Shown piece after piece: positions 34,348 to 54,954 of a stretch of 64,000 nt of DNA (positions within the stretch are counted from its first letter, which is position 1; the number at the start of each line of letters is the position of its first letter). The stretch covers positions 224-64,223 of the forward strand of contig CAZVWJ010000012.1 in NCBI GenBank assembly GCA_964631325.1. Reading direction: 5' to 3'. The notes below the pieces were generated by a model. It was given only the letters and a program-made list of their open reading frames with translations. It was not told where the DNA came from and made no database searches. A program made the position numbers and the translations under genes. This stretch comes from an uncultured bacterium. Lineage in GTDB: Bacteria > T1Sed10-126.

Positions 34348-35265
34348 TTAGTCGGTAGTGACGGTTCCGAGCAGATATTCGAGGATCGCCTGCTGGCTGT
34401 GCATCCGGTTCTCGGCCTGTTCAAAGATCCGGGAGTGCGGGCCGTCCATTACCTCATCGGTCAGCTCCTCGCCTCGATTGGCCGGCAGGCAGTGCAAGAC
34501 AATACATTTCTCTTTTGCCTGTTCAAGCAGAGACGAGTTAACCTGGTAAGGGCCAAAAGTCTCGTACCTCTGCTCGGCTTCGTCCTCGTCCCCCATACTG
34601 ACCCAGACATCCGTGTAGATGGCATCGGCCCCGCTAACTGCGGCCTGCGGATCAGTAGTTACCTCGATCCCGGAATTTCTTTCCTGCATTGGTTTTAGGA
34701 CTTCGTCTTTTGGAGCAAACTGTTGGGGGGCGCAGACAGTAAGGTCAAAACCAAATATTCCGGCGGCATTAATCAGGGAATGGCAGACATTATTTCCATC
34801 GCCGATATAAGTTAATTTAGCCTCTTTCAGACTGCCGGTAACTTCTTCCTGGATAGTCATCACGTCCCCCATTGCCTGGCAGGGGTGACAGAGATCTGTC
34901 AGGCCGTTAATCACGGGAATACTGGCACCGGCGGCAAGATCCTCAACATCACTGTGCTCAAAAGTACGGATCATCATAATATCCACGTAACGGGAGAGGG
35001 TTTTACCCGTATCGCCGATAGTTTCCCCACGAGAGAGCTGAAGTGTTTCTTCGCCCAGGTACATCGACGTTCCTCCCAACCGATGCATAGCCATGCGGAA
35101 GGAAACATTGGTCCGGGTAGAAGGTTTAGTGAAAATCATGGCCAGAGCTTGATCTTCACCCCGGCGTGGAGTTGCTCCCTGTTTTAGTTCAATGGCTCGA
35201 TCAATAATTGACTGCAGGGTTTCCCGTTCATAATCGGTCAGAATAACAAGATCACGTTTACTCAT
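34348..35265 (-). CDS. argF: ornithine carbamoyltransferase-family protein
   Basis: STRTR motif (FTKPSTRTNVSF), HPCQ, HCLP motifs; 305 aa. Confidence 0.75.
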   Translation of the reverse strand: MSKRDLVILTDYERETLQSIIDRAIELKQGATPRRGEDQALAMIFTKPSTRTNVSFRMAMHRLGGTSMYLGEETLQLSRGETIGDTGKTLSRYVDIMMIRTFEHSDVEDLAAGASIPVINGLTDLCHPCQAMGDVMTIQEEVTGSLKEAKLTYIGDGNNVCHSLINAAGIFGFDLTVCAPQQFAPKDEVLKPMQERNSGIEVTTDPQAAVSGADAIYTDVWVSMGDEDEAEQRYETFGPYQVNSSLLEQAKEKCIVLHCLPANRGEELTDEVMDGPHSRIFEQAENRMHSQQAILEYLLGTVTTD

Positions 35266-36455
35266 GTTTCAAGCACCGCCTCAACGTCTTTTAATCCATT
35301 CCCGGTAACCAGACAGACAGCGGGAGTGGGTATTTCGCCTTGATTACTGCTGAATTCTTTTAAACCGGTAATACTGGTTACACCAGCCGGTTCGGCAAAA
35401 ATTCCGGTACTGCTGGCCAGTTCCGGAATCGTATCCAAAATCTCATCGTCAGAAACTGTAACAGCGTCTCCTCCGGTTTCAACCACGGAACGCACGGCCG
35501 CGACACCATCGCTGGGTGAATCTACGGCAATAGAATCGGCCCGGGTGGAAGCAGAAACAGTTTCCATTTCAAAATCCTCCGAAGTTTCCCGGCCGGAATT
35601 AATCTTTTCCACAGTCCGGGCAATTGCGGCGGAAGAATCGCTCTGAACCGCAAAGATTGCCGGGAGCGAGTCAATTAATCCCAACTGCTTGAGGTCGCGG
35701 AAACCTTTCCAGACACCGCTGATAATATTTCCATCCCCGACCGGAACAAAGACTGAGCCGGGGGCCTGGAAACCAAGCTGTTCCCAGATTTCAAAAGAAA
35801 CAGATTTTTTACCTTCGCGGGTAAAGGGATTAAACCCGGTATTCCGGTTAAAATACCCGTGTTCCTCGCATTCCTCCACACAGAGCTGGAAAGCCTCGTC
35901 ATAAGTGCCGTCAACTTTGCGCACGTCAGCGCCATACACTTCCAACTGGGCAATTTTTGCCTTCGGAGCAGAAGCGGGCACAAAAATAATCACAGGCATA
36001 CCGCAAGCGGCTCCCATGCAGGCCCAGGAACAACCGGCATTCCCGGTAGAGGCGCAGGCGACTTTATCAATCCCTTTCTCAATGGCCACAGTCATCACCA
36101 CACTGCTGGCTCGGTCTTTAAAAGAAGCAGAGGGCATTCGGGAGTCATCCTTAAGATAGACAGCACCGGTCCCGGTTTTATTTTCCAGGTCACGAGCCCG
36201 GTAAAGAGGAGTAACTTCCATGTAAAGACGCGGCACATTTTCCACGTCGGCAAAGGGAAACAGGGGACTATAGCGCCAGACCTGGCTGTTGTAGTTTTGT
36301 TTTAAGACCTCAACCGAAAATTCCTCTGAGATTCCCTGGTAATCGTAGTCAGCGTCAAGTTTACCGGAGCATTTACTGCAGATGTAGTCCGCGTAATCAG
36401 CAGGATATTCGGCTCCACATTCCAGGCAGGTAAATCCGGTGTGATAATTAGCCAT
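35262..36455 (-). CDS. threonine-synthase-family PLP-dependent enzyme with N-terminal zinc ribbon
   Basis: PLP-lysine motif SFKDRASS; ASTGNAG motif; N-terminal CLECGAEY...CSKCSG. Confidence 0.65.
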   Translation of the reverse strand: MANYHTGFTCLECGAEYPADYADYICSKCSGKLDADYDYQGISEEFSVEVLKQNYNSQVWRYSPLFPFADVENVPRLYMEVTPLYRARDLENKTGTGAVYLKDDSRMPSASFKDRASSVVMTVAIEKGIDKVACASTGNAGCSWACMGAACGMPVIIFVPASAPKAKIAQLEVYGADVRKVDGTYDEAFQLCVEECEEHGYFNRNTGFNPFTREGKKSVSFEIWEQLGFQAPGSVFVPVGDGNIISGVWKGFRDLKQLGLIDSLPAIFAVQSDSSAAIARTVEKINSGRETSEDFEMETVSASTRADSIAVDSPSDGVAAVRSVVETGGDAVTVSDDEILDTIPELASSTGIFAEPAGVTSITGLKEFSSNQGEIPTPAVCLVTGNGLKDVEAVLET

Positions 36456-36458
36456 GGG

Positions 36459-37403
36459 TTAAGGCCTCACAGTGGTTCCGGCTTCCCCTTCAAGAGCAGA
36501 TTCAATTTGTTCGGGGGAAGTAATGATAGCCTCTTTGCCGCCCTGTTCCAGGTAATCAACAGCAGCTTTAACCTTGGGTTTCATACTGCCGGGGGCAAAG
36601 TGACCTTCTTCGGTGTACTGCTTGGCCTCAGCGACGGACATTTCGTCGAGTTCTTCTTCGTCGGGCTCGCCAAAATTAAGGCAGACCTTATCGACGGCCG
36701 TAGAAATCAAGAAAAGGTCGGCGTCGATATTAGAGGCCAACACAGCCGAAGCTGCGTCTTTATCAATCACAGCTTCAATACCAGCGGTAATTCCGTCTTC
36801 CCGTTCATAGACGGGAATTCCGCCTCCGCCAACGGCAATAACCGAGTCACCGCGATCAACAAGCGCGTTAATTTGGTCTTCTTCAATTATTTCTTCAGGC
36901 TTGGGTGAAGGAACAACTCGCCGGTAGCCACGGCCAGCGTCTTCAACCACGTCCCAGCCGTCTTCTTCTTCGTGCTGGTTTGCTTCATCTTTTTCCATGA
37001 AAGGACCAATCGGCTTGGAAGGATTGGAGAAAGCCGGATCATCTTTATCGACTTTGACCCGGGTGACTACGGTGACAGCGTCCTGGTCAATATCACGGCG
37101 ATCAAATTCGTTTTTCAGAACCTGCTGAAAGGTATAACCAATTGCGCCCTGGGTATCGGCAACGCAGGAGTCCAGGGGAACCTTGTGAAGACCAGCCTGT
37201 TTCTGAGCCAGTTCAGCCCGCAGGAGAATGAAACCAACCTGGGGACCATTTCCATGGGTAACAACCACATTCCAGCCCTTCTCTATCATTCCGGCAATAT
37301 GTTTTGAAGTTGCAACCACGGCCGAATACTGGTCGGGAACACTTTCCTTACCTTCCTCGGCGATTAATGAATTTCCTCCAACTGCAATTACTGCTGTAGG
37401 CAT
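36459..37403 (-). CDS. arcC: carbamate kinase
   Basis: N-terminal AVIAVGGNSL...VVTHGNGPQVG typical of carbamate kinase; 314 aa. Confidence 0.85.
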   Translation of the reverse strand: MPTAVIAVGGNSLIAEEGKESVPDQYSAVVATSKHIAGMIEKGWNVVVTHGNGPQVGFILLRAELAQKQAGLHKVPLDSCVADTQGAIGYTFQQVLKNEFDRRDIDQDAVTVVTRVKVDKDDPAFSNPSKPIGPFMEKDEANQHEEEDGWDVVEDAGRGYRRVVPSPKPEEIIEEDQINALVDRGDSVIAVGGGGIPVYEREDGITAGIEAVIDKDAASAVLASNIDADLFLISTAVDKVCLNFGEPDEEELDEMSVAEAKQYTEEGHFAPGSMKPKVKAAVDYLEQGGKEAIITSPEQIESALEGEAGTTVRP

Positions 37404-37515
37404 TATTTTGCCTCCTTAGAATAAATTAATTTTCTTCGCACACAAATATTCAATCAAGTTAAGCATTAAGAGATTCGTTAAAACAAACCAGTAAAAGAGA
37501 TATATAAGACAATAA

Positions 37516-37557
37516 GATGGCTTGCCCGGACCGGCTGAACCGGTCGGGCAAACCATC
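37516..37557. terminator. long GC-rich hairpin between carbamate kinase and upstream carbamoyltransferase genes
   Basis: gatggcttgcccggaccggctgaaccggtcgggcaaaccatc, ~17-bp stem. Confidence 0.35.
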
Positions 37558-37594
37558 TTAGTTACACAAAAAAGGGGCAGGGTAAAATCTAAAC

Positions 37595-38632
37595 TTAACC
37601 CATCGAAAGAGCCATGTAAGCTTTCTGGACGTGAAGCCGGTTTTCGGCAATATCCAGAATAATCGAACGCGGGCCGGAAGCAACTTCATCAGTTGCTTCG
37701 TGGGTCCGGTCCACGGGCATTGGATGGGAGAAAACGCCATCGTCAGTAAGCTTCATCTTCTCCTCGTCACAGATCCAATCCGTGTATTGCATGGCCTTTT
37801 CGATCTCTTGTTCTTTCTTAAATTCACCGTCCTGGTAAGCATCTTCGCTCATCCAGTTCCGAGAATAAACAATGTCCGCGTCCTCGTAAACGTCGACGGG
37901 ATCGTGAGAAATGTCAAAACTGGTCCCGTTTTCCTTGCAGTTCTCCCGGGTCCAGCTGACAACCTCCTCGTCAAGCGCATAGCCTTTCGGGTAGGCGGTG
38001 CGGACATTCATTCCCAACCGGGAACTAATGAGCATACTTTCCTGGACGGAACAGTGGGACCGGGCAAGAGCGCCATGGCCCCAGACGTGGGCAATCGTCA
38101 AGTCCTCGAGATCTTTATCGAAGTGCTTGCGGTAGCCCATCACGTCGGCCAGGCCCTGGCAGGGATGAAACCTGTCGTGGGCAAAACTGACCAGCGGTTT
38201 ATCGAGGTACTTGTCGTATTCCCGAAGCACCTCGTCACCGCGTCCGTAGTAATCAATTTTATCCTCGAGCATGCGGATCCCGACACCGGTTCCGTAGCGG
38301 TTCATCACACCGGCGACGTCTTCAATCGTTTCTCCGCCCTGCTTTTCGGCGTCTTCGTCCAGGGATTCCAGACGCATACTGCCAGGTTCAATGTAGAGTC
38401 CGTGTCCGCCCAGCTCGGTCGCAGCAATCTCAAAGGACTGCCGGGTGCGGACGGAGGGATTGTAAAAGAACATGAGGAAGCTTCGGTCCTGGAGGACAGA
38501 ATTATACTTGTCCGAATACCGGTCCTGCTGCATTTCCTCAGCCAGTTCCACAATCTCCATAATTTCATCGCGAGAAATATCCTGAGTAGTAATCAGGGAC
38601 TTGCCGTTTAAACTGCTATCGCGCAAGGTCAT
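37595..38632 (-). CDS. YgeW-like (knotted) carbamoyltransferase paralog
   Basis: FYNPSVRTRQSFE, HPCQ motifs; 345 aa. Confidence 0.7.
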   Translation of the reverse strand: MTLRDSSLNGKSLITTQDISRDEIMEIVELAEEMQQDRYSDKYNSVLQDRSFLMFFYNPSVRTRQSFEIAATELGGHGLYIEPGSMRLESLDEDAEKQGGETIEDVAGVMNRYGTGVGIRMLEDKIDYYGRGDEVLREYDKYLDKPLVSFAHDRFHPCQGLADVMGYRKHFDKDLEDLTIAHVWGHGALARSHCSVQESMLISSRLGMNVRTAYPKGYALDEEVVSWTRENCKENGTSFDISHDPVDVYEDADIVYSRNWMSEDAYQDGEFKKEQEIEKAMQYTDWICDEEKMKLTDDGVFSHPMPVDRTHEATDEVASGPRSIILDIAENRLHVQKAYMALSMG

Positions 38633-38634
38633 CG

Positions 38635-39675
38635 TTACATCAGCGCTCCCATTACTGCTTTTTGAGCATGCAGTCGATTTTCGGCCTGGTCAAAGACAAC
38701 AGACTGATCGCCGTCCATTACTTCATCAGTGACCTCGAAGCCACGGTCAGCCGGCAGACAATGCATGTAATAGGCATTATCCTTAGCCTTGGCCATCTTC
38801 TCCTGGTCACACTTCCAGTCCTTGTTAGCTTCAAACAGTTCCGTCATCCCGGAATCATCTCCGGCGGCGACGTTCTGAAATTCGTCCTTGGCGCCCCAGC
38901 ACTTGGGATAAACCACGTCGGCGTCTTCGAAAGCCTCGTCCATGTCGTAAGAAACTTCAAAGCTACCGCCGGAATCCTCCGCGTAAGTGTCACAGGCGTC
39001 AAGAATGTCATCGTCCAGTTCGAAGCCTTTCGGCTGAGCCTGGACAACGTCCATTCCCATCTTCGAAGCGGCAATAATAGCCGACTGCGGCACACTCAGC
39101 GGTTTCTCGTAGGAAGGAGAATAGGCCCAGGACATCACAAACTTCTTGTCCTTCAAACTGCCCAGCTTCTCCTTCATTGTCATAACGTCCGTGAGTGCCT
39201 GACAGGGATGGTATTTGTCACATTCCATGTTGAGAATTGGAACGTCAGTCCAGCGAGCAAATTCTTCCATGTAGTTGCTGGCCCGGCCGTAAACCCAGCC
39301 TGTCGGGGGACCATACATCCGGATGGCAATGGCATCCCCGTAACGTTCCAGGACCCGGGCGACGTCGGAAACGCGTTCCGTAGAATACGCTTCCTCATCA
39401 CCTTCTACGGCGGGTGTGTAAATCTTGTCAGAAGCCAGGTAGTGAGCATGGCCACCGAGTTGAGTCATTCCGGACTCGAACGAATTACGGGTCCGAAGCG
39501 ACTGGTTATAAAAAATCATGTAAAGTGATTTATCCTCGAGAAGATGCGAATGCTTCTCCTCCAGGGCAAATCTCCTCTTCAGGTCAAGTCCCAGGTCAAT
39601 AAAAGTACCAATCTCTTCCTGGGAAAAATCCCTTAAGGTAAGAAAATCACGACCACGTAAACTTTTCGTTTGCAT
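38635..39675 (-). CDS. YgeW-like carbamoyltransferase paralog
   Basis: FYNQSLRTRNSFE, HPCQ, HCLPADRG motifs; 346 aa. Confidence 0.7.
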   Translation of the reverse strand: MQTKSLRGRDFLTLRDFSQEEIGTFIDLGLDLKRRFALEEKHSHLLEDKSLYMIFYNQSLRTRNSFESGMTQLGGHAHYLASDKIYTPAVEGDEEAYSTERVSDVARVLERYGDAIAIRMYGPPTGWVYGRASNYMEEFARWTDVPILNMECDKYHPCQALTDVMTMKEKLGSLKDKKFVMSWAYSPSYEKPLSVPQSAIIAASKMGMDVVQAQPKGFELDDDILDACDTYAEDSGGSFEVSYDMDEAFEDADVVYPKCWGAKDEFQNVAAGDDSGMTELFEANKDWKCDQEKMAKAKDNAYYMHCLPADRGFEVTDEVMDGDQSVVFDQAENRLHAQKAVMGALM

Positions 39676-39877: not shown

Positions 39878-41260
39878 TTAGGAAATCACCAGAATCAGAT
39901 AATCGTAAATTAAGTTTGGTAAAAATCCCAGCACCAGCACTACCCCTGCTGCGGTAAACAAAACCGCTTTATTGCTCCAGTATTTTTTTTCATCCATTTT
40001 TAGTTCTCCAGCCTCATTTTTCTCCGAAAATAGCAAAGGAGAAAGTAGTCTAAAATAGCAGGAAACCACAATTAACAGACTGACTAAAGCAAGACCGGTA
40101 AAAACAAAAAAATTAGCCCCAATGCCTGCCAGACATACGATTGTTTTTGCTGCAAAACCTGCCAGAGGCGGGAAGCCGGCCAGGGAAAGAAAAAGAATCC
40201 CCCCGGAGAAGGAGATTAATTTATTAGCTGACGGAAGTGAACTTATTGTGGCTATTGCAATTTTTTCTTCGCTTTCGGATTTAATTAACTGCAGGAGACC
40301 GGCAACCCCCATAAAAGCAGAAGTCGAGACGGTAAGGTAAAAAAGAACAGCCCGAGCGCCAGGTAAAGTCCCGGTTGCAAGTCCCAGTGTAACAAAACCG
40401 GAACGAAAAACTACCGTCCAGGCCAACAACCGTTTAAAATAATTTTGAGCAAAAGTGAAAAGACTACCTACAAGCAGTGAAATTATTGTAAAAAACAGAA
40501 ACAAATAAATCCAGGCAACGGGTATACCAGGACGTAAATAAAGCATCACTCTCAAAAGGAAACTTATTAAAGCAATTTGATAAGAGGTGGAAAGGAGAGC
40601 AAAAAGTGGCAAGGGTATCCCTTCCAGAACATCAGGTAGCCAGAAATAAAACGGTCCCAGACCAAGTTTTATCGCAACTCCGGTAACTACAATTAAAACC
40701 GAAAAGGTTACAACCGGAGACTGTGCACCGGTAAGAGCTGCTAACCCGGCCGAATGGGTGGCCAAATAAAATAAGACAATCCCCAGTAAAACAACTGCGC
40801 TGCCAATAAGATTAAAAAGATAAAATTTCAATCCAGCTTCAACAGTATGATTGCCGGGTTTATAAAGACAAAGAAAATAAAAAGCAACGGACACAAGTTC
40901 CGCTCCTACCAGGAAAACAAAAAGATTTTCAGTATAAACTACAGCAAGCAGTCCAACAGTAAGTGAAAGAACAAAAAATGACCATTCGCTATAGTTGAGT
41001 TTGTGGGTCTCCAGGTAAGGATAAGAATAGCCAAGCACCCCCAACTGAGCAACCAAAACAAGCACTCCCGCATAATTAGAGAGAGGAGAAAATTTAAATC
41101 CGGAGATGGAACCGGTAAAATTTACAAGAGTCAGACCTATTGCGATAACAATTGCAACCCCGGCCCAGACAAGAACTGTTGGAGTATCCGAGGCCACAGT
41201 TCGCCAGAGCAAAATGGCAAGAGCAGTAAAAATAATTATCCCGGGGGCAAATAAGCTCAT
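39878..41260 (-). CDS. nuoN: complex I antiporter-like subunit N
   Basis: polytopic membrane protein; position and size (460 aa) in nuo operon. Confidence 0.6.
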   Translation of the reverse strand: MSLFAPGIIIFTALAILLWRTVASDTPTVLVWAGVAIVIAIGLTLVNFTGSISGFKFSPLSNYAGVLVLVAQLGVLGYSYPYLETHKLNYSEWSFFVLSLTVGLLAVVYTENLFVFLVGAELVSVAFYFLCLYKPGNHTVEAGLKFYLFNLIGSAVVLLGIVLFYLATHSAGLAALTGAQSPVVTFSVLIVVTGVAIKLGLGPFYFWLPDVLEGIPLPLFALLSTSYQIALISFLLRVMLYLRPGIPVAWIYLFLFFTIISLLVGSLFTFAQNYFKRLLAWTVVFRSGFVTLGLATGTLPGARAVLFYLTVSTSAFMGVAGLLQLIKSESEEKIAIATISSLPSANKLISFSGGILFLSLAGFPPLAGFAAKTIVCLAGIGANFFVFTGLALVSLLIVVSCYFRLLSPLLFSEKNEAGELKMDEKKYWSNKAVLFTAAGVVLVLGFLPNLIYDYLILVIS

Positions 41261-42810
41261 AGAGTGTCCCCGCCCTTCAAACTATATCCCCGGGTAAAAT
41301 GGACCGGTCTCCGGGCCCGGGAAGGAAGCTGGTGAGGTAACTGTTGAATACTTTGATTGCGGGTAATAATCCTATTCACAACCGGTCGCAGAGGTTGGTA
41401 AAGATATTGAGGAGCAACTCCCAACCAGAGGATCAAAAAAACAAAAATGGCCAGAAGAACATATCCCAATCTGGAAACCGGTTTATCTTTAAGAATACAT
41501 TCAGAACCGGATACAAAAACCGCGTGGTGAATAAATTTTAAAGCAAAGGGAAGCGACAGAAGAACAGTCAGCAAACTGGCGCCCAGCAGGAGAGGATTTG
41601 CAGTTAAAGTCGAAAAAATTGCCACTCTCCCGATAAAACCGGAAGTGCCAATCAAACCTATAGAAGCAAATAAAAGAAAAATAAGAATAGCAGCCATTCC
41701 CGGGTGTGAGTCAGCCAGGCCCTGAAAAACCGATAAATTAGCAGGGGCGGCGCGATTTCTAAAAAATCCAACAAAGAAAAATAAACCGGTAACAATTAAA
41801 CTATAACTGAGCGCCTGATACAGGGCTCCGGTAATACTGCTGGTTGAGAGGTTGAACAGTCCCAGAAATACAACCCCCAGTTGTCCGTAAGCCGAATAAA
41901 TTATCAATTTTAAATAATTATCCTGCAACCAGGCAGCCAAGAAACAATACCCGGTCTGAAATATAGCCAGTAAACTCAGCCACCAAGTATAATCTACCAG
42001 CCAGGAATAGGTCAGGGGATATAAAAAACGGACAAAACCATAAATACCGGTATTAATAACAATACCGACGAATAAAACCGCAAAAGCCGGAGAAAGCTCT
42101 TTTAACAAAGCAGTAGTTTTACCATGCAGAGGAAACAGGGCTGACCTGAGTCCAAAGCTCAAAAGCAATCCCAAAAATATCCAGCCCGTGCCGGGCACTT
42201 CAAGGGCGGAAAGCTCAGAAAATCTCAAACCACTTCCCGCAAGCTGTTGTAAGTTCAAATAGTAGATAAACATAACTACAAAAAATAGCAAAAAGCTGCC
42301 GGCCAGTGAACGAATCAGGTAACGGTGAGCCACTTTTTCATCACTTGACCGAACAACGAGCAAGTATACAGGAATGAGCAAAAATTCCCAGAAAAAGTAA
42401 AAAAGGAATACGTCCCGGGAAAAATAAAGTCCAAACAGGGTTCCGGCAGCCAGAAGGAAAGCCGGATAAAAATAAGCGGGCTGTTCAAGTTTTTCCAGGA
42501 GAAGATAAAGGAGGACAAGTAAAAGTAAAAAAACTGTAAAAAAGAAGAAAACAGAGCTGAGCAAGTCAGCAGCCAGAAGGAATTTTGAGTCAAGTGGAGC
42601 GAGAAACCAGTTGAAATTTACCGCTGACCAGAAACCAATCAGAGGCCGCGAACTGTGGGCGGGAAGCCAGCTCCAGACCACAGCTCCAACCACTCCCGGG
42701 AGCCCAACCGCCAAAAATGTCCACCAAATTGAGTAGCGTTCCGCCGGTGAAAAATAAAAAAGAGCCGTGGCAATTAGATAGGGAAACAAAACAATAAACA
42801 AAAGTAACAT
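41257..42810 (-). CDS. nuoM: complex I antiporter-like subunit M
   Basis: 517-aa polytopic membrane protein, operon position. Confidence 0.6.
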   Translation of the reverse strand: MLLLFIVLFPYLIATALFYFSPAERYSIWWTFLAVGLPGVVGAVVWSWLPAHSSRPLIGFWSAVNFNWFLAPLDSKFLLAADLLSSVFFFFTVFLLLLVLLYLLLEKLEQPAYFYPAFLLAAGTLFGLYFSRDVFLFYFFWEFLLIPVYLLVVRSSDEKVAHRYLIRSLAGSFLLFFVVMFIYYLNLQQLAGSGLRFSELSALEVPGTGWIFLGLLLSFGLRSALFPLHGKTTALLKELSPAFAVLFVGIVINTGIYGFVRFLYPLTYSWLVDYTWWLSLLAIFQTGYCFLAAWLQDNYLKLIIYSAYGQLGVVFLGLFNLSTSSITGALYQALSYSLIVTGLFFFVGFFRNRAAPANLSVFQGLADSHPGMAAILIFLLFASIGLIGTSGFIGRVAIFSTLTANPLLLGASLLTVLLSLPFALKFIHHAVFVSGSECILKDKPVSRLGYVLLAIFVFLILWLGVAPQYLYQPLRPVVNRIITRNQSIQQLPHQLPSRARRPVHFTRGYSLKGGDTL

Positions 42811-42879
42811 TTAAGTCCTCCGAATCAGCCAGATAAATTCAACAGCCAAGTGCAACATAAAACATCAACGACTTCCACT

Positions 42880-42990
42880 ATAGCTCCCCTCCCCTGATGG
42901 GAGGTAATTAAGGGAAGGGGGATGATAACGTGAACAGTGTTCACCCCCACCTAACCTCCCTCATCAGGGTGAGGGATGTTGGAAGGGAAA
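42880..42990. repeat. GC-rich hairpin repeat in nuoM-nuoL intergenic gap (related copy at 60375-60535)
   Basis: cccctgatgggaggtaattaagggaagggggatg vs cccttgatgggggaggactaaggtgggggtgaaa; local hairpins ccctca..tgaggg. Confidence 0.5.
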
Positions 42991-43056
42991 TTGTTGCATT
43001 TGTTAATTGAATCCAAGGCTCATAATTTAACGCAGACACACATATTATTTACCACT

Positions 43057-44895
43057 CTAATACAAACAAAGTAAGTACAGGCACAGAATTATAAAAGTAA
43101 GACCGAAAACACAAAAGCGGAGATACCGGCTAAGCTGACCTGGCTGTTGAAATCGAAGCAAAGTGCTGCACACTCCGAGAATTTTTTCCACACTGTTCCA
43201 GGCCGGTTCAATAATATTTTTCTCGCTAATTTGTATACTTTTTCGAGTAAAATTTTGAACCGGATAAACGAAAATCCCAGTAATCATCTGTCGTGGGGAA
43301 AAATTAAAAATGGATATTTTCTGAGACAAACCTCTAAAACTACTTGTAAATCGAAGCCAATTTACTTCCCGAACATAAAGTAAATAAGCAATAAAAATAA
43401 TCCCAATTTCAAACATTACTTCCAACAGAAGGAAATAACCGTTTAGAGCCCAAAAATTTAAAAAAGTGAGCGGGAAATAAATAGTTCCCATCAAAAATCC
43501 CCCGAAAATAGCGAAAGGAGATAATCCCAGGATAGAATAACGAAGTAATTTTCTATCTTCATGTACGGTGCCGGGGGGACGGCGGTTACTGACAAACAAA
43601 ACAAAGATAAGCCGAAAAGAATAAAAGATAGTCAGGTAGCGAACAACCAGAAGACCAACAAAATAGATGAAATTAAGGCCGCTGAAAATTTTCCCCACGG
43701 CTGGAAACAAAGAGATGTAGGACCAGAAGCCACCAAACGGAGGAATACCGGCGAGACTGAGAGAACCAACAATTGTTCCAAAGGCAGTTACCGGAACAAT
43801 CTTTCCCAGCCCCCCCAGTTCAAATAGATCGTATTTTTGACAGGTCAAAGTTAGCACTCCAAGGGAAAGAAAAATCAATATTCTCGCAAAAGCCTGGTTT
43901 AGTAAATGAAAAATTGCGCCGGAAAACAAGCTATTTCCGACCACGGCAAACAATAAACCAAGCTGACTCAGGGAAGAAAAAGAAAGGAATTTTTTCAAAT
44001 CTCGTGCCCTGGCGGCAACCAAAGCTCCGAAAATTGCCGTTACTAATCCTACGGGAACAATTATCCTTTTAAACCACAAGAAGCCTGAGAATATAAAATC
44101 AAAACGATGCAGAAAATAAATACCGCAAATCGGCAAAATAACAGTTTGAATAAAGCCGCCGCCCGGGAGGGGTCCGGAAAGGGTATTAGAAAGCCAGGCA
44201 TAAAATGGAAACTGAGCAGTTTTAATAATTATTCCAAACAACAAAAGTGTTCCCAAGTAAAATTGAGTCGCGGGCTGAAGTTCGGAAATTAAACTGACCA
44301 GCCCATCTATTTGCGTGCTTCCACCAAGTTCAGCAAGGTAAATAAAACCGGCAAACAAGAATACTGAACCCAGTAGATTAAACGAAAAAGTTACGTTGGA
44401 ACGGGCTCCAGTCTCTTCGCTCTGATTCCAGTAGCCGGAAAACAGGTAAAGGAACACAGACAGCACTTCCCAGGTTAAAAGAAGGAGAAAAAGATCACCG
44501 GCGGCAAGAAAAAAGAGAAAATTCACGGTCAATAAATTTAAAAACGTAAAATAGGTCGAGGGACGAGAAGATTCAACAAAATCAAGTGAATAAAACTGAA
44601 CGAAAAAATTAACAGTGGTTACAACCGTGTAAAATATCAGAGTGTAAACAGTAAAAGAAAAAGTAAAGGTAAAAGTGAATTCATCGAGTTGAATCAGTTG
44701 ATAGAAGGGCCAGGGATCAGTAGCACCAACTCCAACTAATAGTGATATCCAGGCAAGGAGAGCAGCAACACAGGCTCCGGTAACTGAAAGTCGTGATTTC
44801 AACCTGAAGTCATAGGCGTTAAAATTCACCAGGTTGAACAGAGCCGGATAAACAAGAGCGAGTGTCATCAAGATAAAAAAGATTAATGTGACCAA
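43057..44895 (-). CDS. nuoL: complex I antiporter-like subunit L
   Basis: 612-aa polytopic membrane protein, operon position. Confidence 0.6.
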   Translation of the reverse strand: MVTLIFFILMTLALVYPALFNLVNFNAYDFRLKSRLSVTGACVAALLAWISLLVGVGATDPWPFYQLIQLDEFTFTFTFSFTVYTLIFYTVVTTVNFFVQFYSLDFVESSRPSTYFTFLNLLTVNFLFFLAAGDLFLLLLTWEVLSVFLYLFSGYWNQSEETGARSNVTFSFNLLGSVFLFAGFIYLAELGGSTQIDGLVSLISELQPATQFYLGTLLLFGIIIKTAQFPFYAWLSNTLSGPLPGGGFIQTVILPICGIYFLHRFDFIFSGFLWFKRIIVPVGLVTAIFGALVAARARDLKKFLSFSSLSQLGLLFAVVGNSLFSGAIFHLLNQAFARILIFLSLGVLTLTCQKYDLFELGGLGKIVPVTAFGTIVGSLSLAGIPPFGGFWSYISLFPAVGKIFSGLNFIYFVGLLVVRYLTIFYSFRLIFVLFVSNRRPPGTVHEDRKLLRYSILGLSPFAIFGGFLMGTIYFPLTFLNFWALNGYFLLLEVMFEIGIIFIAYLLYVREVNWLRFTSSFRGLSQKISIFNFSPRQMITGIFVYPVQNFTRKSIQISEKNIIEPAWNSVEKILGVCSTLLRFQQPGQLSRYLRFCVFGLTFIILCLYLLCLY

Positions 44896-44899
44896 AATA

Positions 44900-45196
44900 T
44901 CACCATTTTAACTCCGAATAACAATCCGGATCCGGGACTTCTCCAACCCGGGTTAAATACACCATCAACAGAGAACCACAAACAAAATTACAGAAAAAAG
45001 CAGTAAGAATAAAAAGGACATACCCCCGGTCAGATTCAAGGGCAAGAAACTGGGCCATGACACTGACTAAAAAACTGAGTGCAATTATCATAAGTTCGGC
45101 GGAAAGCAAAATATTCAATAAATTTTTCCGGTAAAATAGACCAAAAAAACCTATTAAAAAGAGCAACAATCCAAGCAGTAGATAATAAAAATACAT
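44900..45196 (-). CDS. nuoK: complex I subunit K
   Basis: 98 aa, 3 TM, operon position. Confidence 0.6.
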   Translation of the reverse strand: MYFYYLLLGLLLFLIGFFGLFYRKNLLNILLSAELMIIALSFLVSVMAQFLALESDRGYVLFILTAFFCNFVCGSLLMVYLTRVGEVPDPDCYSELKW

Positions 45197-45213
45197 TATT
45201 GCTTACTCCTCCC

Positions 45214-45726
45214 CTACTCTTCCCCGGAAAAATCAAGTAAATATATACTGCCCACGAGGGTGACAACCAGCAAGAGGGCAAGTAATGAAAATACGGCAAA
45301 ATAATTTTGAGCGGCTAATTCGGCTGTAAACTGTAATGCTCCGCCACCGGCCAGAGAAAAAGCAAAATCTCCAGGCAATCCGGGAGCGTAACTTAATTTC
45401 AAAAAGATAAGTAAAAGGAGCAGTCCCAGAAGTAGAACTTGGAGAAAGATAAAAAAATTCACAGCGTCTAAACGCAAAAAAGTTTCACCAGATGATTGTG
45501 AACACAAAAGTATAGCAAAAACAAAAGCACCACTGGTGCCCCCACCAAAAAATACCATCAAAAACAATCCCAGAAAAGGACGGTTCAACAGAAAAAAAAG
45601 TACCCCGAGGCCAAATAGTACTACCAGCAGACCGAGTAAATTCTGAAAAAACGAACGGCTAAAGATTACAACGGTTGCTCCAACAAGAGAAATTAAAGCC
45701 ATGAGAAAAAATAAAAGCTGTTCCAT
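45214..45726 (-). CDS. nuoJ: complex I subunit J
   Basis: 170 aa membrane protein, operon position. Confidence 0.55.
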   Translation of the reverse strand: MEQLLFFLMALISLVGATVVIFSRSFFQNLLGLLVVLFGLGVLFFLLNRPFLGLFLMVFFGGGTSGAFVFAILLCSQSSGETFLRLDAVNFFIFLQVLLLGLLLLLIFLKLSYAPGLPGDFAFSLAGGGALQFTAELAAQNYFAVFSLLALLLVVTLVGSIYLLDFSGEE

Positions 45727-46934
45727 TATTTTTCACCTGACCGTGCCCGTCGAGGTTCTATCAATTTAACAGTATTCGTATTATCAGGATAAAGTTGCCC
45801 TGAAACAAGGCTCAAAAAAATAATTACAAGCCAGACAAGTTGAACAGACACCCAGTAAAAAACTGAAACGGGAAAAATCAACTTAAGCAGCCCGGCTAAC
45901 AAAAGATTACACCAGGTCAGAGGAATTAAATACTGCCAGCACAAATTCATTAATTGAGGATATTTTAACCGGGGGTAAAAAGTAGCGAGCCGGACCAGTA
46001 AATAAATAATCAGCCCTGTTTTAAGCCCAAACCAACCAAGGTGCCAGAATAAATTAAATCCCGGAAAAAAACCATCAATGACCGGGGGAAACAAACTGCT
46101 TACCGGGGGGACCCAGCCACCGAGAAATAGAACCGTAAACAAACTGGCCTGTGCAAATAAGACAAGATACTGAGTAAACACAGTAAAAAAGCTAATTTTA
46201 CGGTTGACCGAAAATTCAGGTTCTAATCCTTCTAAATAGAAAGTAAAACGCCGGTGGAAGAAAAAAATGATAATTAAATAAAGAACAGCTAACAGAGGCT
46301 GATAAAACAATAACCACCCCTGGTTCAGTTGATATTTAACAATTTGAAACAAATTAAGGGAGCCGGAGCAAATTACCAGACCGGGGAGAACGAAAACCCA
46401 GGCAAACAAGAGGGAAAACAGTAAAGCCAACTCCCGGATTTTACTCCACCCTGACTCCGAGCTCCAGAGCCTGGGGAGCTGGCCGAGAAAAAACAGAAAC
46501 ACACAGACCACCACAATGAGCAGACCTAATTCGGGAGTGGCGACAACAAGTAGAGGAAACTCGGATAGTCCGGGATGTAGTTGTGATAGTGAGAGGCTAA
46601 CTCGACCAAACGGAAGCACAGCAAACAGAAAAAGAAAACCAGTGACTGAAATTACGTTTCCAAGTCGAACAAATAAATGGTAATTGGCCGATTTAGTTCC
46701 GGTTTCATCCAGCCTCCCCGGGTTATTCGTTCCAACTGGAGGCAACCACTTTTGAGAATTAAATGGGGATATTATAAAGTCAGTAACTTTTATTTGAGCG
46801 GAGAAAAAATAAACCAACCCCCCGATTATGACTAAAATTAAAATTAAAAAAAACAGGGATTTAGAGACCAGGGCAATGCAAAATAAAAACCAGTAATAAA
46901 TTTTAACCACTTCCCCCGGAAATCGTAAGGTCAA
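45726..46934 (-). CDS. nuoH: complex I subunit H with N-terminal extension
   Basis: C-terminal LVRLATFYPRLKYPQLMNLCWQYLIPL matches NuoH R-x-PR-x-R-x-DQL motif; 402 aa. Confidence 0.7.
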   Translation of the reverse strand: MTLRFPGEVVKIYYWFLFCIALVSKSLFFLILILVIIGGLVYFFSAQIKVTDFIISPFNSQKWLPPVGTNNPGRLDETGTKSANYHLFVRLGNVISVTGFLFLFAVLPFGRVSLSLSQLHPGLSEFPLLVVATPELGLLIVVVCVFLFFLGQLPRLWSSESGWSKIRELALLFSLLFAWVFVLPGLVICSGSLNLFQIVKYQLNQGWLLFYQPLLAVLYLIIIFFFHRRFTFYLEGLEPEFSVNRKISFFTVFTQYLVLFAQASLFTVLFLGGWVPPVSSLFPPVIDGFFPGFNLFWHLGWFGLKTGLIIYLLVRLATFYPRLKYPQLMNLCWQYLIPLTWCNLLLAGLLKLIFPVSVFYWVSVQLVWLVIIFLSLVSGQLYPDNTNTVKLIEPRRARSGEK

Positions 46935-48039
46935 AACTTGAAATTATGGCCCGACTATCGGCAAGGCTGGTAGCTTCAACTAATTTTTGTAAAACAAAGT
47001 AATTATGGGATGCCGGATTTCGTTGGTAGAACCGAAGACAATCAGATTGGGGGCGGGATTCGACAGACCAACCTAATTCTCCGGCCGGGGCTTCCAGACA
47101 ATAATAAAATTCCCCGGTCGGAAGGTCGTTATCTTTAACCTCAAGAACAAAATCGTCGGATTTTTTAATGTTGGTTAACGGCCGGAGTGCTCGACCAGAA
47201 TTCAGCGGTCCCTCCGCCTCTATATTCTCCAGACACTGCTCAAGAATATATAGGCTCTGCTGGATTTCCTTGAATCGAACCAGAAACCGATCATAACTGT
47301 CCCCGTGTTCCCCGACGGGAAGACTGAAATCAACAGAGTCAAACATAAAATAAGGTTCAGCAGAACGCAAATCCCAATTAACCCCCGTAGCCCGCAAACA
47401 TGGACCGGTTAACGACCAGTCGAGCGCCGGCTCAATCGCCAGTTCACCCACCTGCCGGGTGCGTTTTTTAAAAAAAATGGAGAAAAAGTATCTCTTTTCA
47501 AAAAACTGTAAAGAAGAAGTGAGTTGATCCAGAACAGATTGAAAAACTGAATGAAAGTTTGTGGGTAATGGTCCTTTGAAACCACCCATTCGAACCAGGT
47601 TCTTACCAAAGGGGGTGCTATTAATTTGAGCAAGTGCCCGGGAAATAACCTGGTGGGCTGAGAGAAGATTATCTGCCGGTAAAGCTGCTCCTAAATTTCG
47701 AAATCCACCGGCCAATAAACTCAGATGAGCCCGGATTCGAAACAATTCACTAAAAAATGTCCGCAGCCAACTGGCCCGGCGGGGAATTTTCCGGTCCAGA
47801 AAATTTTCAAGCGCCATAACCAGAGCCAGTTGAGACCAGGAAAACTGTTGCAGGTCCGGAGACTCAGGAGGCTGTTTTTCAGTCGACGCCGCAGTAGATA
47901 TTTCTACCGGGAGTTTAGCGGCTTCTATAAACTCAGCAGTCTTTACCCGGCCATTTTTAAGATGAAGTTTAATTGCCCCGGCTTGATTGTTTCCCGGTAA
48001 AGGAACCAGAAAAGTTGAAGCTTCAACTTGAGTAATCAT
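46903..48039 (-). CDS. nuoD: complex I 49-kDa subunit homolog (NuoD-like), divergent, lacking conserved quinone-site His/Tyr
   Basis: aligns with Nqo4 over ALENFLDRKIPRRASWLRTFFSELFRIRAHL, VRMGGFKGPLP, LTGPCLRATGVNWDLR, PTGEFYYCLEAPAGELGW; N-terminal GPQHPxxHG replaced by LPGNNQAGA. Confidence 0.7.
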   Translation of the reverse strand: MITQVEASTFLVPLPGNNQAGAIKLHLKNGRVKTAEFIEAAKLPVEISTAASTEKQPPESPDLQQFSWSQLALVMALENFLDRKIPRRASWLRTFFSELFRIRAHLSLLAGGFRNLGAALPADNLLSAHQVISRALAQINSTPFGKNLVRMGGFKGPLPTNFHSVFQSVLDQLTSSLQFFEKRYFFSIFFKKRTRQVGELAIEPALDWSLTGPCLRATGVNWDLRSAEPYFMFDSVDFSLPVGEHGDSYDRFLVRFKEIQQSLYILEQCLENIEAEGPLNSGRALRPLTNIKKSDDFVLEVKDNDLPTGEFYYCLEAPAGELGWSVESRPQSDCLRFYQRNPASHNYFVLQKLVEATSLADSRAIISSFDLTISGGSG

Positions 48040-48515
48040 TTTGATTTATTTTTTACCAGATTAATTTCGAATGGTTCAGAAGAACTCACTTTGCCAGCTT
48101 CAAGGGGAGACAATTTTTCCGTTACTTCCAGGTTGAAACGATGACTGATTTTTGCTTCGTACTGGCGGGCCCCGGGCCAGAGAGGAGAAACCGAGGGGAA
48201 CCGACCCCGGGCTTCCAACGTAGTAGAGACGACAGCTCGGCCGGCTAAATTAAACGAATAGAGCCAGTAAAAGAGTTCAATCAAGTTATTTTCGGGAACA
48301 GTTACAGCAGCACTAATAGTTGAAAGATGGAGAAAATAATAAGGTTTACCATCTTTAAGCGTCCGGCAGACCGGCAAGATATTTTCAGCAGAGACCTTAA
48401 TTTTAACTATATTTTGGGGAGTAAGAGTAGTTTTTAGGGAACCAGAGTCAGCCAGCTTTTCCTCAAGAAAATCAGCTATCCTGGTGGGGGATAAAAAATC
48501 CTCGGAAGGACACAT
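48036..48515 (-). CDS. nuoC: complex I 30-kDa subunit homolog
   Basis: PSVSPLWPGARQYEAKISHRFNLEV matches NuoC core. Confidence 0.6.
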   Translation of the reverse strand: MCPSEDFLSPTRIADFLEEKLADSGSLKTTLTPQNIVKIKVSAENILPVCRTLKDGKPYYFLHLSTISAAVTVPENNLIELFYWLYSFNLAGRAVVSTTLEARGRFPSVSPLWPGARQYEAKISHRFNLEVTEKLSPLEAGKVSSSEPFEINLVKNKSK

Positions 48516-48544
48516 TTAATTTTGCGCTAACGTTTTATTAAACT

Positions 48545-48889
48545 TCATTCCCACTGAAAGACACCATGTTTCCAGGCATAAAGATAGCCAGCCGTAAAAC
48601 TAATGGCCAGGGGGAGAAAAGCAGTGACAATGACCGGTTCAGTAAAGAGGGAGGAATTTAAGAGGAGTGCCCATCCAAAAACAAAAATTAGAGAAAAACT
48701 AAGGAGCAAGCAAACAAACCAAAATTTTAAAAAATCGCCAAAAAAATTAATGCGCGAAAGAGAGAACGTAAAACCAGGGGCCTTGCTTTCCCGGAAACAA
48801 AGCGTTACCAGTGGAAAGCAGACCAAGAATGCAACAGCAATAATAAATATAACCACTGGAAGCCAGGTGAGAATTAGTTCCTGTGTCAT
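48545..48889 (-). CDS. nuoA: complex I subunit A
   Basis: 114 aa, 3 TM, first gene of cluster. Confidence 0.55.
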   Translation of the reverse strand: MTQELILTWLPVVIFIIAVAFLVCFPLVTLCFRESKAPGFTFSLSRINFFGDFLKFWFVCLLLSFSLIFVFGWALLLNSSLFTEPVIVTAFLPLAISFTAGYLYAWKHGVFQWE

Positions 48890-50644
48890 TCACAATTTAC
48901 CGACAGTTTTTTGCCAGAATTCTGGTAAAATATCTGAGAACTTACGATCTTTTATTTCTCCAATATTGTCCGCGTCTTTGTTTGCTTCAACAATTTCCCT
49001 GGTTTTTTCTTCCCGGATATCAATATATTCTTCCAGTTCAATAATAGCCCGGAGCATTTTATCCTTGTTCCAGTTTTCCCATAAACCACGACCAAATAAT
49101 CGGCCCAGGAGAGCCACTTTTGAAGATTTAAGAACATGTAGTTCAGGGATTTTATCTTCAATACCGGCATAACTTCCCTGGACCAAACTTTTAATCAGGT
49201 GGTGAACCGGCCAGGAAGAAAGTTGATTCTGAGCAATAAATCTAACCATTTTAAAGCAGGAAAGAATATTAATCCCTCCGTGAAATTCCCTGTCTCTAAG
49301 AGCCGGGTAATTTTTAAGAGCGGGAAGCCAGTGTTCAATCAACTTGCTCTCGTCAACCGCTTCACACCGAAAATAAGGACAATCAGTTAACACTCCGTCC
49401 TCATACATTTTTTGAAACCAGCGCGAGGCAACGGGGCGATCAGCTATTTTTAACATCTCCTCGGTTATTCGTTCTTTGCTCACAGTTTCCAGGCGAGAAA
49501 TATTTGAACGAATATTTTTCTGAAGCTGTTCGGAGAAGTTCAACTTATGATCAGCCGCGAGGCGGTAAGCACGAAGGATTCGAAGAGGATCATTTTCCAG
49601 GGCATCCTCCCGGGTAAGACGGAGAACCCTCTGGTCAGCATCAGCCCGCCCCTCCACAGGATCAACCCAGGCTTCCCTGTCCATATCAAGGGCAATGCTG
49701 TTAATAGTAAAATCACGACGGCGAAGATCATCAACAACTTTTTCTTCACCTACCACGGTTAAATCCACCTGAGTTTTATCACCCGGCAACCGGTACATTT
49801 GACGCTCCTCATCAAGAGTAAACCACTTGCCGGCCAGTTCATCAGCCAATTTATTCTGCACTGATTCCGGAAATTCTGAGGCCATCAGATCGTAATCTTC
49901 CGGCTGTTTACCGGTAAGTAAATCGCGAATAGTCCCACCAACCAGAAAAACTCCAATATCCTCGTCCAGAAAGGGACGGGTAATTACTTCAATTCTTTCC
50001 CGCTCCTCACGAGCAGTCCGGTCAGCCAGGCGGAGTGGCTCAGGGAGACGGGATTTTTCAGAAAGCAGGGGCTCAATCACTTCCGGAATATAATTGGGCT
50101 CAATCATGTGGCCCGGGGAAAGAAATATGGGGGAGGCGCCTGCCTGAGACCGGACAGCAAAACCGACCGGTTCACCGTCCCAGATTGAAGTATGCTCCCC
50201 TACCTCTTCTCCCGGTTCATCGCACTCGCCCACCAGAATATTTTTTGCACAACCAATGGAGGGGGTATCAAGGAACAATCCCACGTGGGAAGCAAGGCCC
50301 ATGCGCCGGGGATGCGCGTAACCATGGCCGTCAATTAGAAAACAGTCCGGTTCCGTCTCCAAACACATTGCCGCGTCAATCATCGGGGGAGCTTCCCGAA
50401 AGGCAAGCAAACCGGAAATATAGGGGAAATTTAACTCAGAAATCAGGACAACTTTTTCGTGGATTCTATGGTCAGCGACGGAGTAGTTAATTGCCGAAGC
50501 GATGCAAATCCGGCTCTCGGGATAAAAAGAAACGTCCAGCGCAGCAATTAGATTAATATCCGGTTCACCTTTGAGGAGACAATCTTCAGCCAACTCTTCC
50601 TGCAACATGCGAGCCTCGTCTTCATTCAGGTCCCAGGGGTGCAC
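48890..50644 (-). CDS. fusion protein: N-terminal endonuclease V (Nfi) + C-terminal class II tRNA nucleotidyltransferase (CCA/poly(A) polymerase head-neck-body, no HD domain)
   Basis: DGHGYAHPRRMGLASHVGLFLDTPSIGCAK aligns with E. coli Nfi [30 protein letters not shown]; then VGGTIRDLLTGKQPEDYDLM (GGxVRD...DxD) and RRDFTINSIALDM of pol-beta-type CCA enzymes; 584 aa. Confidence 0.75.
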   Translation of the reverse strand: MHPWDLNEDEARMLQEELAEDCLLKGEPDINLIAALDVSFYPESRICIASAINYSVADHRIHEKVVLISELNFPYISGLLAFREAPPMIDAAMCLETEPDCFLIDGHGYAHPRRMGLASHVGLFLDTPSIGCAKNILVGECDEPGEEVGEHTSIWDGEPVGFAVRSQAGASPIFLSPGHMIEPNYIPEVIEPLLSEKSRLPEPLRLADRTAREERERIEVITRPFLDEDIGVFLVGGTIRDLLTGKQPEDYDLMASEFPESVQNKLADELAGKWFTLDEERQMYRLPGDKTQVDLTVVGEEKVVDDLRRRDFTINSIALDMDREAWVDPVEGRADADQRVLRLTREDALENDPLRILRAYRLAADHKLNFSEQLQKNIRSNISRLETVSKERITEEMLKIADRPVASRWFQKMYEDGVLTDCPYFRCEAVDESKLIEHWLPALKNYPALRDREFHGGINILSCFKMVRFIAQNQLSSWPVHHLIKSLVQGSYAGIEDKIPELHVLKSSKVALLGRLFGRGLWENWNKDKMLRAIIELEEYIDIREEKTREIVEANKDADNIGEIKDRKFSDILPEFWQKTVGKL

Positions 50645-50802
50645 TTTTTTTCACCTTTAAATTATAAATTTTGTTCTGAATTTAACTTTTCTACAATCAA
50701 AATAAAATAGAGAGTCAAATATTGCTTTCAAAAGATAATAAATTTTATCCTAACCAGACAAAAAAAGACAGCGGAAAATAATATTTCTCAAGACAAGTAA
50801 AA

Positions 50803-53960: not shown

Positions 53961-54392
53961 CTATTCGGGCGGGGGAATGTTTTTCAGTTTGGTTTTTAGA
54001 TACTCATGTATTCTCCGCAGCACTTTTCGGCTTTCCTGTAAAATTTCTGTTACTTCCTCAGAGGTAAAATCGTTCCGAGCAGCATAATCCGCCTGGATTC
54101 TATTCTCCATTAACTTTTGAAAAACAGCAACATAATCAGGCTCCACCTCACCGGTTTTCACAAAATGTTGACTGAACAGGTTAACACTTCCCTGGTGAGA
54201 CTTGGGATGTTTACCAATTAGCACCAGGCAGGCCTGCACAGCGTAAAAGACTGCGTAATAGGCCCGGTCAATCGCTGTTTCGAGGTGGCCACCTTCAAAG
54301 TTGAAGTGCGCCGCCGAATCAGCTTCAAGTGCCTGTTGCCAGCGACTTTGTGCTTCCCGCTTCTCGCTGGTAGAGCCGGAGGCCACGTTCAT
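53961..54392 (-). CDS. HEPN-domain protein (toxin-like)
   Basis: ENRIQADY-type HEPN motif; 143 aa; paired with MNT. Confidence 0.65.
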   Translation of the reverse strand: MNVASGSTSEKREAQSRWQQALEADSAAHFNFEGGHLETAIDRAYYAVFYAVQACLVLIGKHPKSHQGSVNLFSQHFVKTGEVEPDYVAVFQKLMENRIQADYAARNDFTSEEVTEILQESRKVLRRIHEYLKTKLKNIPPPE

Positions 54393-54954
54393 TCACCTCG
54401 CTTTTAAAATTAGAAGAGTCGCCTGCCCATTCATTCACCGTATAAACCTGCAGTGAAACATAAATGTCAGTTGATAATAAAATATCCTGCAGTTCCCGGT
54501 AGAATCGGAGCCACCAGCGCTGTTTACTGAGACGGTCTGTTCGGACAACAATCGCCAGGTCCAGGTCACTGTCTGCCCGGGCCTGAACTCGGACGGTAGA
54601 CCCATAAAGAAAAATAGTCTCGATAATTTCCGGGGCAAGCTCGGCCAGCTTTTCTGTAATTTGAGTGGCCAACTCAAGCCGTCGCAGGGCGGGCAGAAGA
54701 ATTTCTTTCTCTTTACTATCCTGATAAAAAACAAGATCACTGCTGACACCCAACACCTCCAAAAAGCGACTTAAACGGGCCAGGGTCAGTCCGCTTTCAC
54801 CACGTTCCACTTCTCCAACCGCCTGGGCGCTAATTCCCAGCCGCCTTCCCACTTCCTCCAGGGTTAAATTTTCCGCCTCTCGAATATCTCGTAGTTTTTT
54901 TCCTATATCTCCAACAGCATTGGTGGTTAGTTCTAATTTTCGCATACCTGCCAC
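54325..54954 (-). CDS. XRE-HTH fused to minimal nucleotidyltransferase (MNT antitoxin-like)
   Basis: N-terminal HTH LTLEEVGRRLGISAQAV; NTase motif LYGSTVRVQARADSDLDLAIVV. Confidence 0.7.
   Translation of the reverse strand: MAGMRKLELTTNAVGDIGKKLRDIREAENLTLEEVGRRLGISAQAVGEVERGESGLTLARLSRFLEVLGVSSDLVFYQDSKEKEILLPALRRLELATQITEKLAELAPEIIETIFLYGSTVRVQARADSDLDLAIVVRTDRLSKQRWWLRFYRELQDILLSTDIYVSLQVYTVNEWAGDSSNFKSEVNERGLRLYQREAGSTKSLATGT

Follow-up and report, generated by a model that had tools for sequence, protein, structure and literature searches.

Endonuclease V (EndoV) cuts the second phosphodiester bond 3' of inosine and leaves 3'-OH and 5'-phosphate ends. A bifunctional EndoV/alkyltransferase repair protein of Ferroplasma has reportedly been characterised. 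EndoV enzymes of bacteria and humans also cut inosine-containing RNA in vitro, and the cellular purpose of that activity is still unclear. Among bacterial tRNA nucleotidyltransferases, the deletion of a flexible loop is the hallmark of CC-adding enzymes (PMC7014341; PMC3925840); in the literature on these enzymes, the loop is required for the addition of A76 and dispensable for that of C74 and C75. Here, we describe a gene that encodes both kinds of enzymes as a single protein. It is located in a 64,000-nucleotide stretch of DNA (hereafter, the window; contig CAZVWJ010000012.1 of the GenBank assembly GCA_964631325.1) from an uncultured bacterium of the lineage T1Sed10-126. In the encoded protein, a bacterial-type EndoV is followed by a class II tRNA nucleotidyltransferase lacking the flexible loop. 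This is a genuine two-enzyme protein, and a small lineage of uncultured anaerobic bacteria from sediments has retained it. We give a probability of about 0.5 to the reading that it is a CC-adding enzyme carrying an independently acting EndoV.

The gene and its parts were delimited as follows (positions in the window; aa, amino acid residues of the protein).

48890..50644, minus strand: complete fusion gene (584 codons and a TGA stop), a single open reading frame with 28 homologue clusters
50651..50656, minus strand: ribosome-binding site AGGTGA, 6 bases upstream of the GTG start, read from the sequence itself
50045..50644, minus strand: EndoV domain of the bacterial type, aa 1-200 (Pfam PF04493, Foldseek)
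49961..50044, minus strand: linker, aa 201-228, predicted to form one continuous alpha-helix at 202-227 (AlphaFold models)
49610..49960, minus strand: class II nucleotidyltransferase head with motifs A to C, aa 229-345 (Pfam PF01743)
49889..49897, minus strand: catalytic DxD of motif A, D250-Y-D252, codons GAT TAC GAT, invariant in 28/28
49715..49765, minus strand: site of the flexible-loop deletion, aa 294-310, with 15 residues from the third carboxylate to motif B
49370..49609, minus strand: neck, aa 346-425, containing motif D (the nucleotide template D352-x-x-R355) and motif E (Pfam PF12627)
48893..49369, minus strand: body and tail, aa 426-584, all-alpha, recognisable by fold alone (Foldseek)

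The reading frame was unbroken over 584 aa from the GTG start, and the alignment of the fusion members showed that the N-terminus MHPW was the common start in all homologues. All the EndoV and transferase motifs that had been quoted in the initial annotation of this DNA were present in the window protein (IDGHGYAHPRRMGLASHVGLFLDTPSIGCAK, VGGTIRDLLTGKQPEDYDLM, and RRRDFTINS). The two identities assigned there, EndoV and class II nucleotidyltransferase, were borne out by Pfam, where matches were obtained with Endonuclease_5 (PF04493; aa 27-209, E 6.2e-57, 192.9 bits against a cut-off of 23.4), the PolyA_pol head (PF01743; aa 232-342, E 1.1e-18), and PolyA_pol_RNAbd (PF12627; aa 369-420, E 2.6e-10), all three exceeding the curated cut-offs. 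The HD domain (PF01966), said in the same annotation to be missing, indeed gave no Pfam match in the protein at E ≤ 0.1. By sequence, the nearest solved relatives were the Thermotoga maritima EndoV (1e-39) and the Bacillus CCA-adding enzyme (2e-15). The NCBIfam models matched were those of endonuclease V and of the CCA-adding/PcnB enzymes, all under the equivalog cut-offs. The endonuclease V equivalogs scored 183 against a cut-off of 300 and 172 against 230, and the best CCA-adding model, PRK13299, scored 103.9 against 290. The scores of the remaining models were 58.6 against 451 for PRK10885 and, for PcnB, 89.6 against 305.65 (TIGR01942) and 60.1 against 702 (PRK11623). The G+C content was 0.54 at 50000-50499, in the EndoV-coding part, versus 0.42-0.47 in the transferase part, with values of 0.38-0.63 in the neighbourhood.

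The homologue search covered 5.8 billion protein clusters, with assemblies from NCBI, ENA, JGI, and Logan. It yielded 28 full-length fusion clusters of 568-607 aa with 39-100% identity, each of which contained both Pfam domains, and the junction was free of disruptive indels in their alignment. Since the architecture and the junction recur across 28 independently assembled clusters, the merger of two adjacent genes by a sequencing frameshift or a chimeric assembly was excluded. The location of the junction within a confidently predicted helix also speaks against such an artefact, the probability of which we consider to be close to nil. Thus, the fusion proposed in the initial annotation is real.

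The architecture proved to be rare. Among the genomes of 185,579 species, one genome each, it was detected at seven loci (L001-L007, the last of which ends at a contig edge), and the remaining matches of the scan were stand-alone EndoV. An exhaustive HMMER search of 1.84 billion representative proteins retrieved two full-length fusion members and one fragment (P0133); beyond the fusion members, the scores dropped from 671 to about 220 bits, the level of stand-alone EndoV. This fragment, the sole candidate for a stand-alone tail domain, was rejected as such, being a piece of a fusion gene cut by a scaffold gap. No fusion members from UniRef or nr were present among the 28 clusters, and the sources had named the fusion members only “endonuclease V” or “deoxyribonuclease V.” No phage contigs with the fusion were found, and the literature searches revealed no published description of an EndoV-transferase fusion. 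With these counts, the assumption that the architecture is common or already annotated was rejected. The fusion is therefore apparently undescribed, as had been supposed at the outset, and is apparently a new architecture among class II nucleotidyltransferases. The fusion is carried by the metagenome-assembled genomes PWOD01, PWHN01, JBNJDC01, JBDGPI01, JBDGPJ01, CAYTSZ01, CAZKRS01, and CAZEBV01. Two of the carriers, PWOD and PWHN, originate from hypersaline soda-lake sediments, have a size of about 2.2 Mb and a completeness of 96.55%, and were tentatively placed near Candidatus Acetothermia (PMC6146748, supplement).

The EndoV half was compared with solved structures by a Foldseek search of the AlphaFold model. 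Residues 1-200 matched the T. maritima EndoV with a template modelling (TM) score of 0.91, a root mean square deviation (rmsd) of 1.8 Å, and 37% identity, and the fold was matched to 2w36 and 3hd0 with a TM score of 0.91 and an rmsd of 1.8-2.1 Å. The mouse and human EndoV matched the same region far less well (0.75-0.78). Residues D37, E84, and D105 of the window protein aligned with the T. maritima metal ligands D43, E89, and D110, and the PYIS wedge and the GHGYAHPRR pocket were conserved. At the fourth metal-ligand position (H214 in T. maritima), the window protein has Asp; in the family, this position is occupied by Asp in 15 and by His in 9 members, that is, by one of the two in 24/28. 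Across the fusions, D37 and Y75 were each kept in 27/28, E84 in 28/28, and D105 in 26/28, while K134 was kept in 24/28 and replaced by Glu or Gln in 4. The catalytic aspartates were lost in two of the 28 members, namely P0026 (D105N) and P0028 (D37A and D105H), and the transferase was intact in both. Across the fusions, the mean pairwise identity decreased along the protein, from 63% in EndoV through 55% in the head and 44% in the neck to 39% in the tail. EndoV was also observed joined to other domains elsewhere, including an MGMT-type DNA-binding domain, an inorganic pyrophosphatase, VanZ, and a glyoxalase (P0105, P0162, P0166, and P0223).

In the transferase half, the class II motifs A, B, D, and E and the third catalytic carboxylate were kept in 28/28 fusions, with variation only at the first position of EDxxR. 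The residues invariant in all members were GG..RD 236-241, D250/D252, D294, and RDFT.N 310-315 in the head; D352, R355, R358, E391, R392, and E396 in the neck; and W439, H455, R468, W478-P479, H481, G514, G518, K565, and W577 in the body and tail. No Pfam match was obtained for aa 426-584. However, Foldseek aligned the transferase half over 400-430 columns to whole class II enzymes (3h37, 4wc2, 1miv, and 5hc9), and the Pfam-silent region can thus be assigned to the body and tail. The TM scores were 0.66 for the T. maritima CCA enzyme (3h37), 0.62-0.64 for the Aquifex A-adding enzyme, 0.63 for the Bacillus enzyme, and 0.47-0.51 for the Aquifex 3wf* entries. In hhalign comparisons, the head and neck matched the nearest stand-alone relatives at 100%, and the tail profile had no similarity to the HD-bearing relatives. 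The fusion profile also matched, with 187 bits, a protein of 1312 aa from another genome (P0239) that contains an HD domain and two PolyA_pol heads.

The designation “CCA-type” given in the initial annotation was correct as to the class II tRNA nucleotidyltransferase; the enzyme is, however, not a typical CCA-adding one, and the designation should be narrowed to the CC-adding type, since the flexible loop is deleted in 28/28 members, which is the CC-adding hallmark. From the third carboxylate to motif B, there were 15 residues in every fusion, compared with 19 in the Aquifex enzyme of the entries 3WFO-3WFS and 22 or more in the Bacillus CCA-adding enzyme; in 88 of the 90 nearest stand-alone relatives measured, this spacer was 14-15 residues long. 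The fusion was gapped exactly at the flexible loop when aligned with the Bacillus enzyme and was nearly gapless against the Aquifex enzyme. In the AlphaFold model, strand 292-297 passes almost directly into helix 300-308. From the release date, the entry titles, and PMC3925840, we infer that the Aquifex 3WFO-3WFS enzyme is AaS, the CC-adding enzyme described by Yamashita et al. (2014). Because the loop is deleted throughout the family and the literature ties it to A76 and not to C74C75, the sequence allows us to assign the transferase half to the CC-adding type with moderate confidence. No second transferase gene was found in the window or in any fusion-bearing locus examined. No tRNA genes were detected in the window or in L001-L007, and no Rfam families in the window.

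AlphaFold models were analysed for the window protein and for a fusion member 46% identical to it. Both had a mean predicted local distance difference test score (pLDDT) of about 91, a predicted TM score (pTM) of 0.85, and the same secondary structure, and helix 202-227 was present in both with a pLDDT of about 96. In the predicted structures, EndoV is linked through one unbroken helix to a class II tRNA nucleotidyltransferase that has all of its parts (head, neck, body, and tail). Overall, the results support the presence of two active enzymes in one rigid polypeptide, which does not imply a common substrate.

At the locus, the stop codon of the fusion gene abuts the ATG of a gene for a small membrane protein, followed by homologues of nuoC, D, H, J, L, M, and N. 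This gene order was kept in the relatives with 57-67% identity and differed in those with 40-49%; the neighbours in the latter encoded SPFH and flavin reductase proteins and, on the opposite strand, URO-D and ferrochelatase. No RNA-repair or RNA-decay genes were found in any fusion locus examined. Near stand-alone EndoV genes, a class II transferase gene was present in one of 73 loci, so an ancestral EndoV-transferase gene pair is unsupported. In that one locus (L055, 4212-6842, from an uncultured Nitrospirota), the EndoV and class II transferase genes are divergent and lie about 670 bp apart. The comparison of the fusion protein with the PADLOC models gave no family at E ≤ 0.01; with this result and no phage copy, an origin from a defence system or a mobile element was rejected. 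The promoter and terminator scan performed no better than on shuffled sequence.

In the favoured reading, the transferase half would be the lineage's CC-adding enzyme and the part of the protein under the strictest constraint. Judging by its family, it would add C74 and C75 to tRNA 3' ends and not A76; in the absence of A76 addition, the fusion would work with a separate A-adding enzyme. The EndoV half would cut the second phosphodiester 3' of inosine with release of a 3'-OH, as its relatives do, and probably still acts on deaminated nucleic acid in the ordinary way. Both enzymes would share a polypeptide without an obligatory common reaction pathway, and EndoV might also act on a tRNA docked to the transferase. 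Independent roles are favoured by the loss of the EndoV aspartates in two members and the K134E/Q substitutions in four, with the transferase residues kept in all 28, and by the single EndoV-transferase linkage among 73 loci together with housekeeping neighbours that change between subclades. They are also favoured by the lack of PADLOC matches and phage copies and by the fusion of EndoV to unrelated domains elsewhere. In addition, in a recent study, EndoV had no measurable effect on inosine RNA in E. coli in vivo, where its loss or overexpression left inosine-containing RNA unchanged (PMC13436118). Several observations weigh against this reading. Within the fusion protein, conservation is highest in the EndoV half. 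The rigid helical junction, predicted with high confidence in both of the distant members modelled, points to a fixed geometry, and such a geometry is more in keeping with cooperation than with two beads on a string. No unfused ortholog of the transferase was found among the 1.84 billion representatives, and the tail matched the C-termini of the nearest stand-alone relatives with an hhalign probability of only about 1%; the absent ortholog and the sequence-novel tail could reflect specialisation after fusion. In vitro, RNA that contains inosine is cleaved by the E. coli EndoV, and a tRNA-Arg anticodon loop is among the substrates (PMC3741635). As for the CC-adding assignment, a short loop alone is insufficient to define CC-adding enzymes (PMC3925840).

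The conservation of the EndoV half, the in vitro cleavage of the inosine-containing tRNA-Arg loop, and the rigid linker with a pTM of 0.85 in both models would also fit a coupled process. The body and tail of the transferase would dock a tRNA or tRNA-like RNA, the helix would position EndoV beside an aberrant or wobble inosine, and the transferase would extend the new 3'-OH or the tRNA 3' end, thereby marking the RNA for decay or repairing it. The 3'-OH left by EndoV is the primer that a nucleotidyltransferase needs, the tRNA-binding architecture of the transferase half is complete, and the fusion persists among members as little as 39% identical, whereas no unfused ortholog was found. However, the two members that have lost EndoV catalytic aspartates have kept the transferase, the two genes are unlinked in other bacteria, EndoV is also fused to unrelated domains, and no RNA repair or decay partners occur in the contexts examined. 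Moreover, without the loop, the transferase should be limited to adding CC to the acceptor end of tRNA; constitutive cleavage of tRNA-Arg(ICG) would be detrimental; and no RNA role in vivo was seen for the E. coli EndoV. Coupled action is a tentative possibility. For the dedicated part in inosine surveillance and 3'-end repair or tagging that was suggested in the initial annotation, no positive support was found, and it is a hypothesis. It is somewhat more doubtful that the protein performs inosine surveillance on docked tRNAs, with EndoV cutting those that carry deaminated adenines or wobble inosine and the transferase extending the new or native 3'-OH to mark or mend them. Quite unlikely, in our view, is a transferase half that is not restricted to CC and is instead a full CCA-adding enzyme that achieves A76 addition in another way, or a polymerase making poly(A) or other tails. 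The insufficiency of the short loop as a criterion and the match to the PcnB subfamily (89.6 bits) would agree with it, as would the fact that the model is nearer to the open T. maritima CCA enzyme and the Aquifex A-adding enzyme than to the closed Aquifex CC-adding enzyme; however, all the NCBIfam CCA and PcnB matches are far under the cut-offs, and the loop deletion is common to the nearest relatives. The least credible of these functional alternatives is that the EndoV half serves mainly as a non-cutting reader of inosine or RNA, steering the transferase to RNAs such as tRNA-Arg(ICG). Such a role could explain why this half is 63% conserved and yet tolerates D105N, D37A/D105H, and K134E/Q at catalytic positions in some members; D110N is the inactivating mutation that traps the T. 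maritima EndoV on its substrate (title of PDB 6ozf). On the other hand, both catalytic aspartates are present in 26/28 members and E84 in 28/28, and sequencing errors in single contigs of low coverage could account for the substitutions. Thus, a CC-adding enzyme with an independently acting EndoV is the reading that we favour.

If surveillance on docked tRNAs were true, the fusion would be the first natural evidence of a tRNA-directed function of bacterial EndoV. The natural covalent joining of EndoV to a polymerase of tRNA 3' ends, conserved throughout the lineage, provides a concrete protein for testing EndoV action on tRNA. If the halves are independent, the protein is merely an unusual bifunctional housekeeping protein of a small-genome lineage. 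The fusion also adds to the class II nucleotidyltransferases a new loop-deleted subgroup with a sequence-novel tRNA-binding tail.

The window contained several other gene groups, all on the minus strand. Directly downstream of the fusion gene, a complex I-like operon with the nuoC, D, H, J, L, M, and N homologues occupies 39878-48889, with no NuoB recognised in the interval from the first small membrane protein to NuoC; between relatives, the proteins of the operon diverge far more (27-35% identity) than the fusion does (57-59%). The region 34348-39675 carries three paralogous genes of the aspartate/ornithine carbamoyltransferase family, an amino-acid (carbamate) kinase, and a pyridoxal phosphate-dependent enzyme; for one of the carbamoyltransferases, the counterpart in L001 shares 80% identity. 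At 53961-54954, the genes of a 143-aa HEPN-domain protein and of a 209-aa protein upstream of it overlap; the latter protein has PADLOC matches that are HTH-like and nucleotidyltransferase-like (PDC-M05A/B and PDC-S09), and the pair is probably a toxin-antitoxin system of the HEPN/MNT type. The stretch 2661-33090 looks like a defence island and includes the following genes.

2661-5564, minus strand: KAP NTPase
5555-10000, minus strand: 1481-aa protein with an HTH_upstream_double_PIN domain
within 2661-33090, minus strand: 733-aa protein with no Pfam match
12545-16402, minus strand: Eco57I/MmeI-type methylase with TaqI_C
16987-18402 and 25693-27210, minus strand: two Schlafen AlbA_2 proteins
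18403-21648, minus strand: SNF2 helicase with a PLD domain
29478-33090, minus strand: SbcC/SbcD-like pair

Comparison with the known systems demonstrated that the fusion shares the fold, the metal ligands, the wedge motif, and the hypoxanthine pocket with bacterial EndoV (Nfi; T. maritima TM1865 and E. coli EndoV). However, the C-terminal helix, at which bacterial EndoV ends, runs on in the fusion into a tRNA nucleotidyltransferase of 380 residues, and the fourth ligand, His in T. maritima, is replaced by Asp in the window protein and is variable within the family. With the bacterial CC-adding enzymes, represented by the Aquifex aeolicus AaS, the fusion has in common the five core motifs, the loop deletion, and the head-neck-body-tail architecture. 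The Aquifex enzyme differs in its spacer of 19 residues and its closed conformation, whereas the fusion has a spacer of 15 residues and is modelled in an open state, consistent with the low TM scores to the 3wf* entries. Unlike the stand-alone loop-deleted relatives, the fusion has an additional N-terminal EndoV and a body and tail without sequence similarity to any of them. The HD-domain CCA-adding and repair enzyme of the E. coli Cca type (PRK10885) is likewise a class II transferase covalently joined to a nucleic-acid hydrolase; there, the hydrolase is a C-terminal HD phosphohydrolase, whereas the fusion has an N-terminal EndoV and no detected HD domain. In the fusion of EndoV with an MGMT-type DNA-binding domain, EndoV is also one half of a bifunctional polypeptide. 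The partners in the other EndoV fusions are DNA-repair or unrelated metabolic domains, whereas in the window protein the partner is an RNA polymerase acting on tRNA 3' ends.

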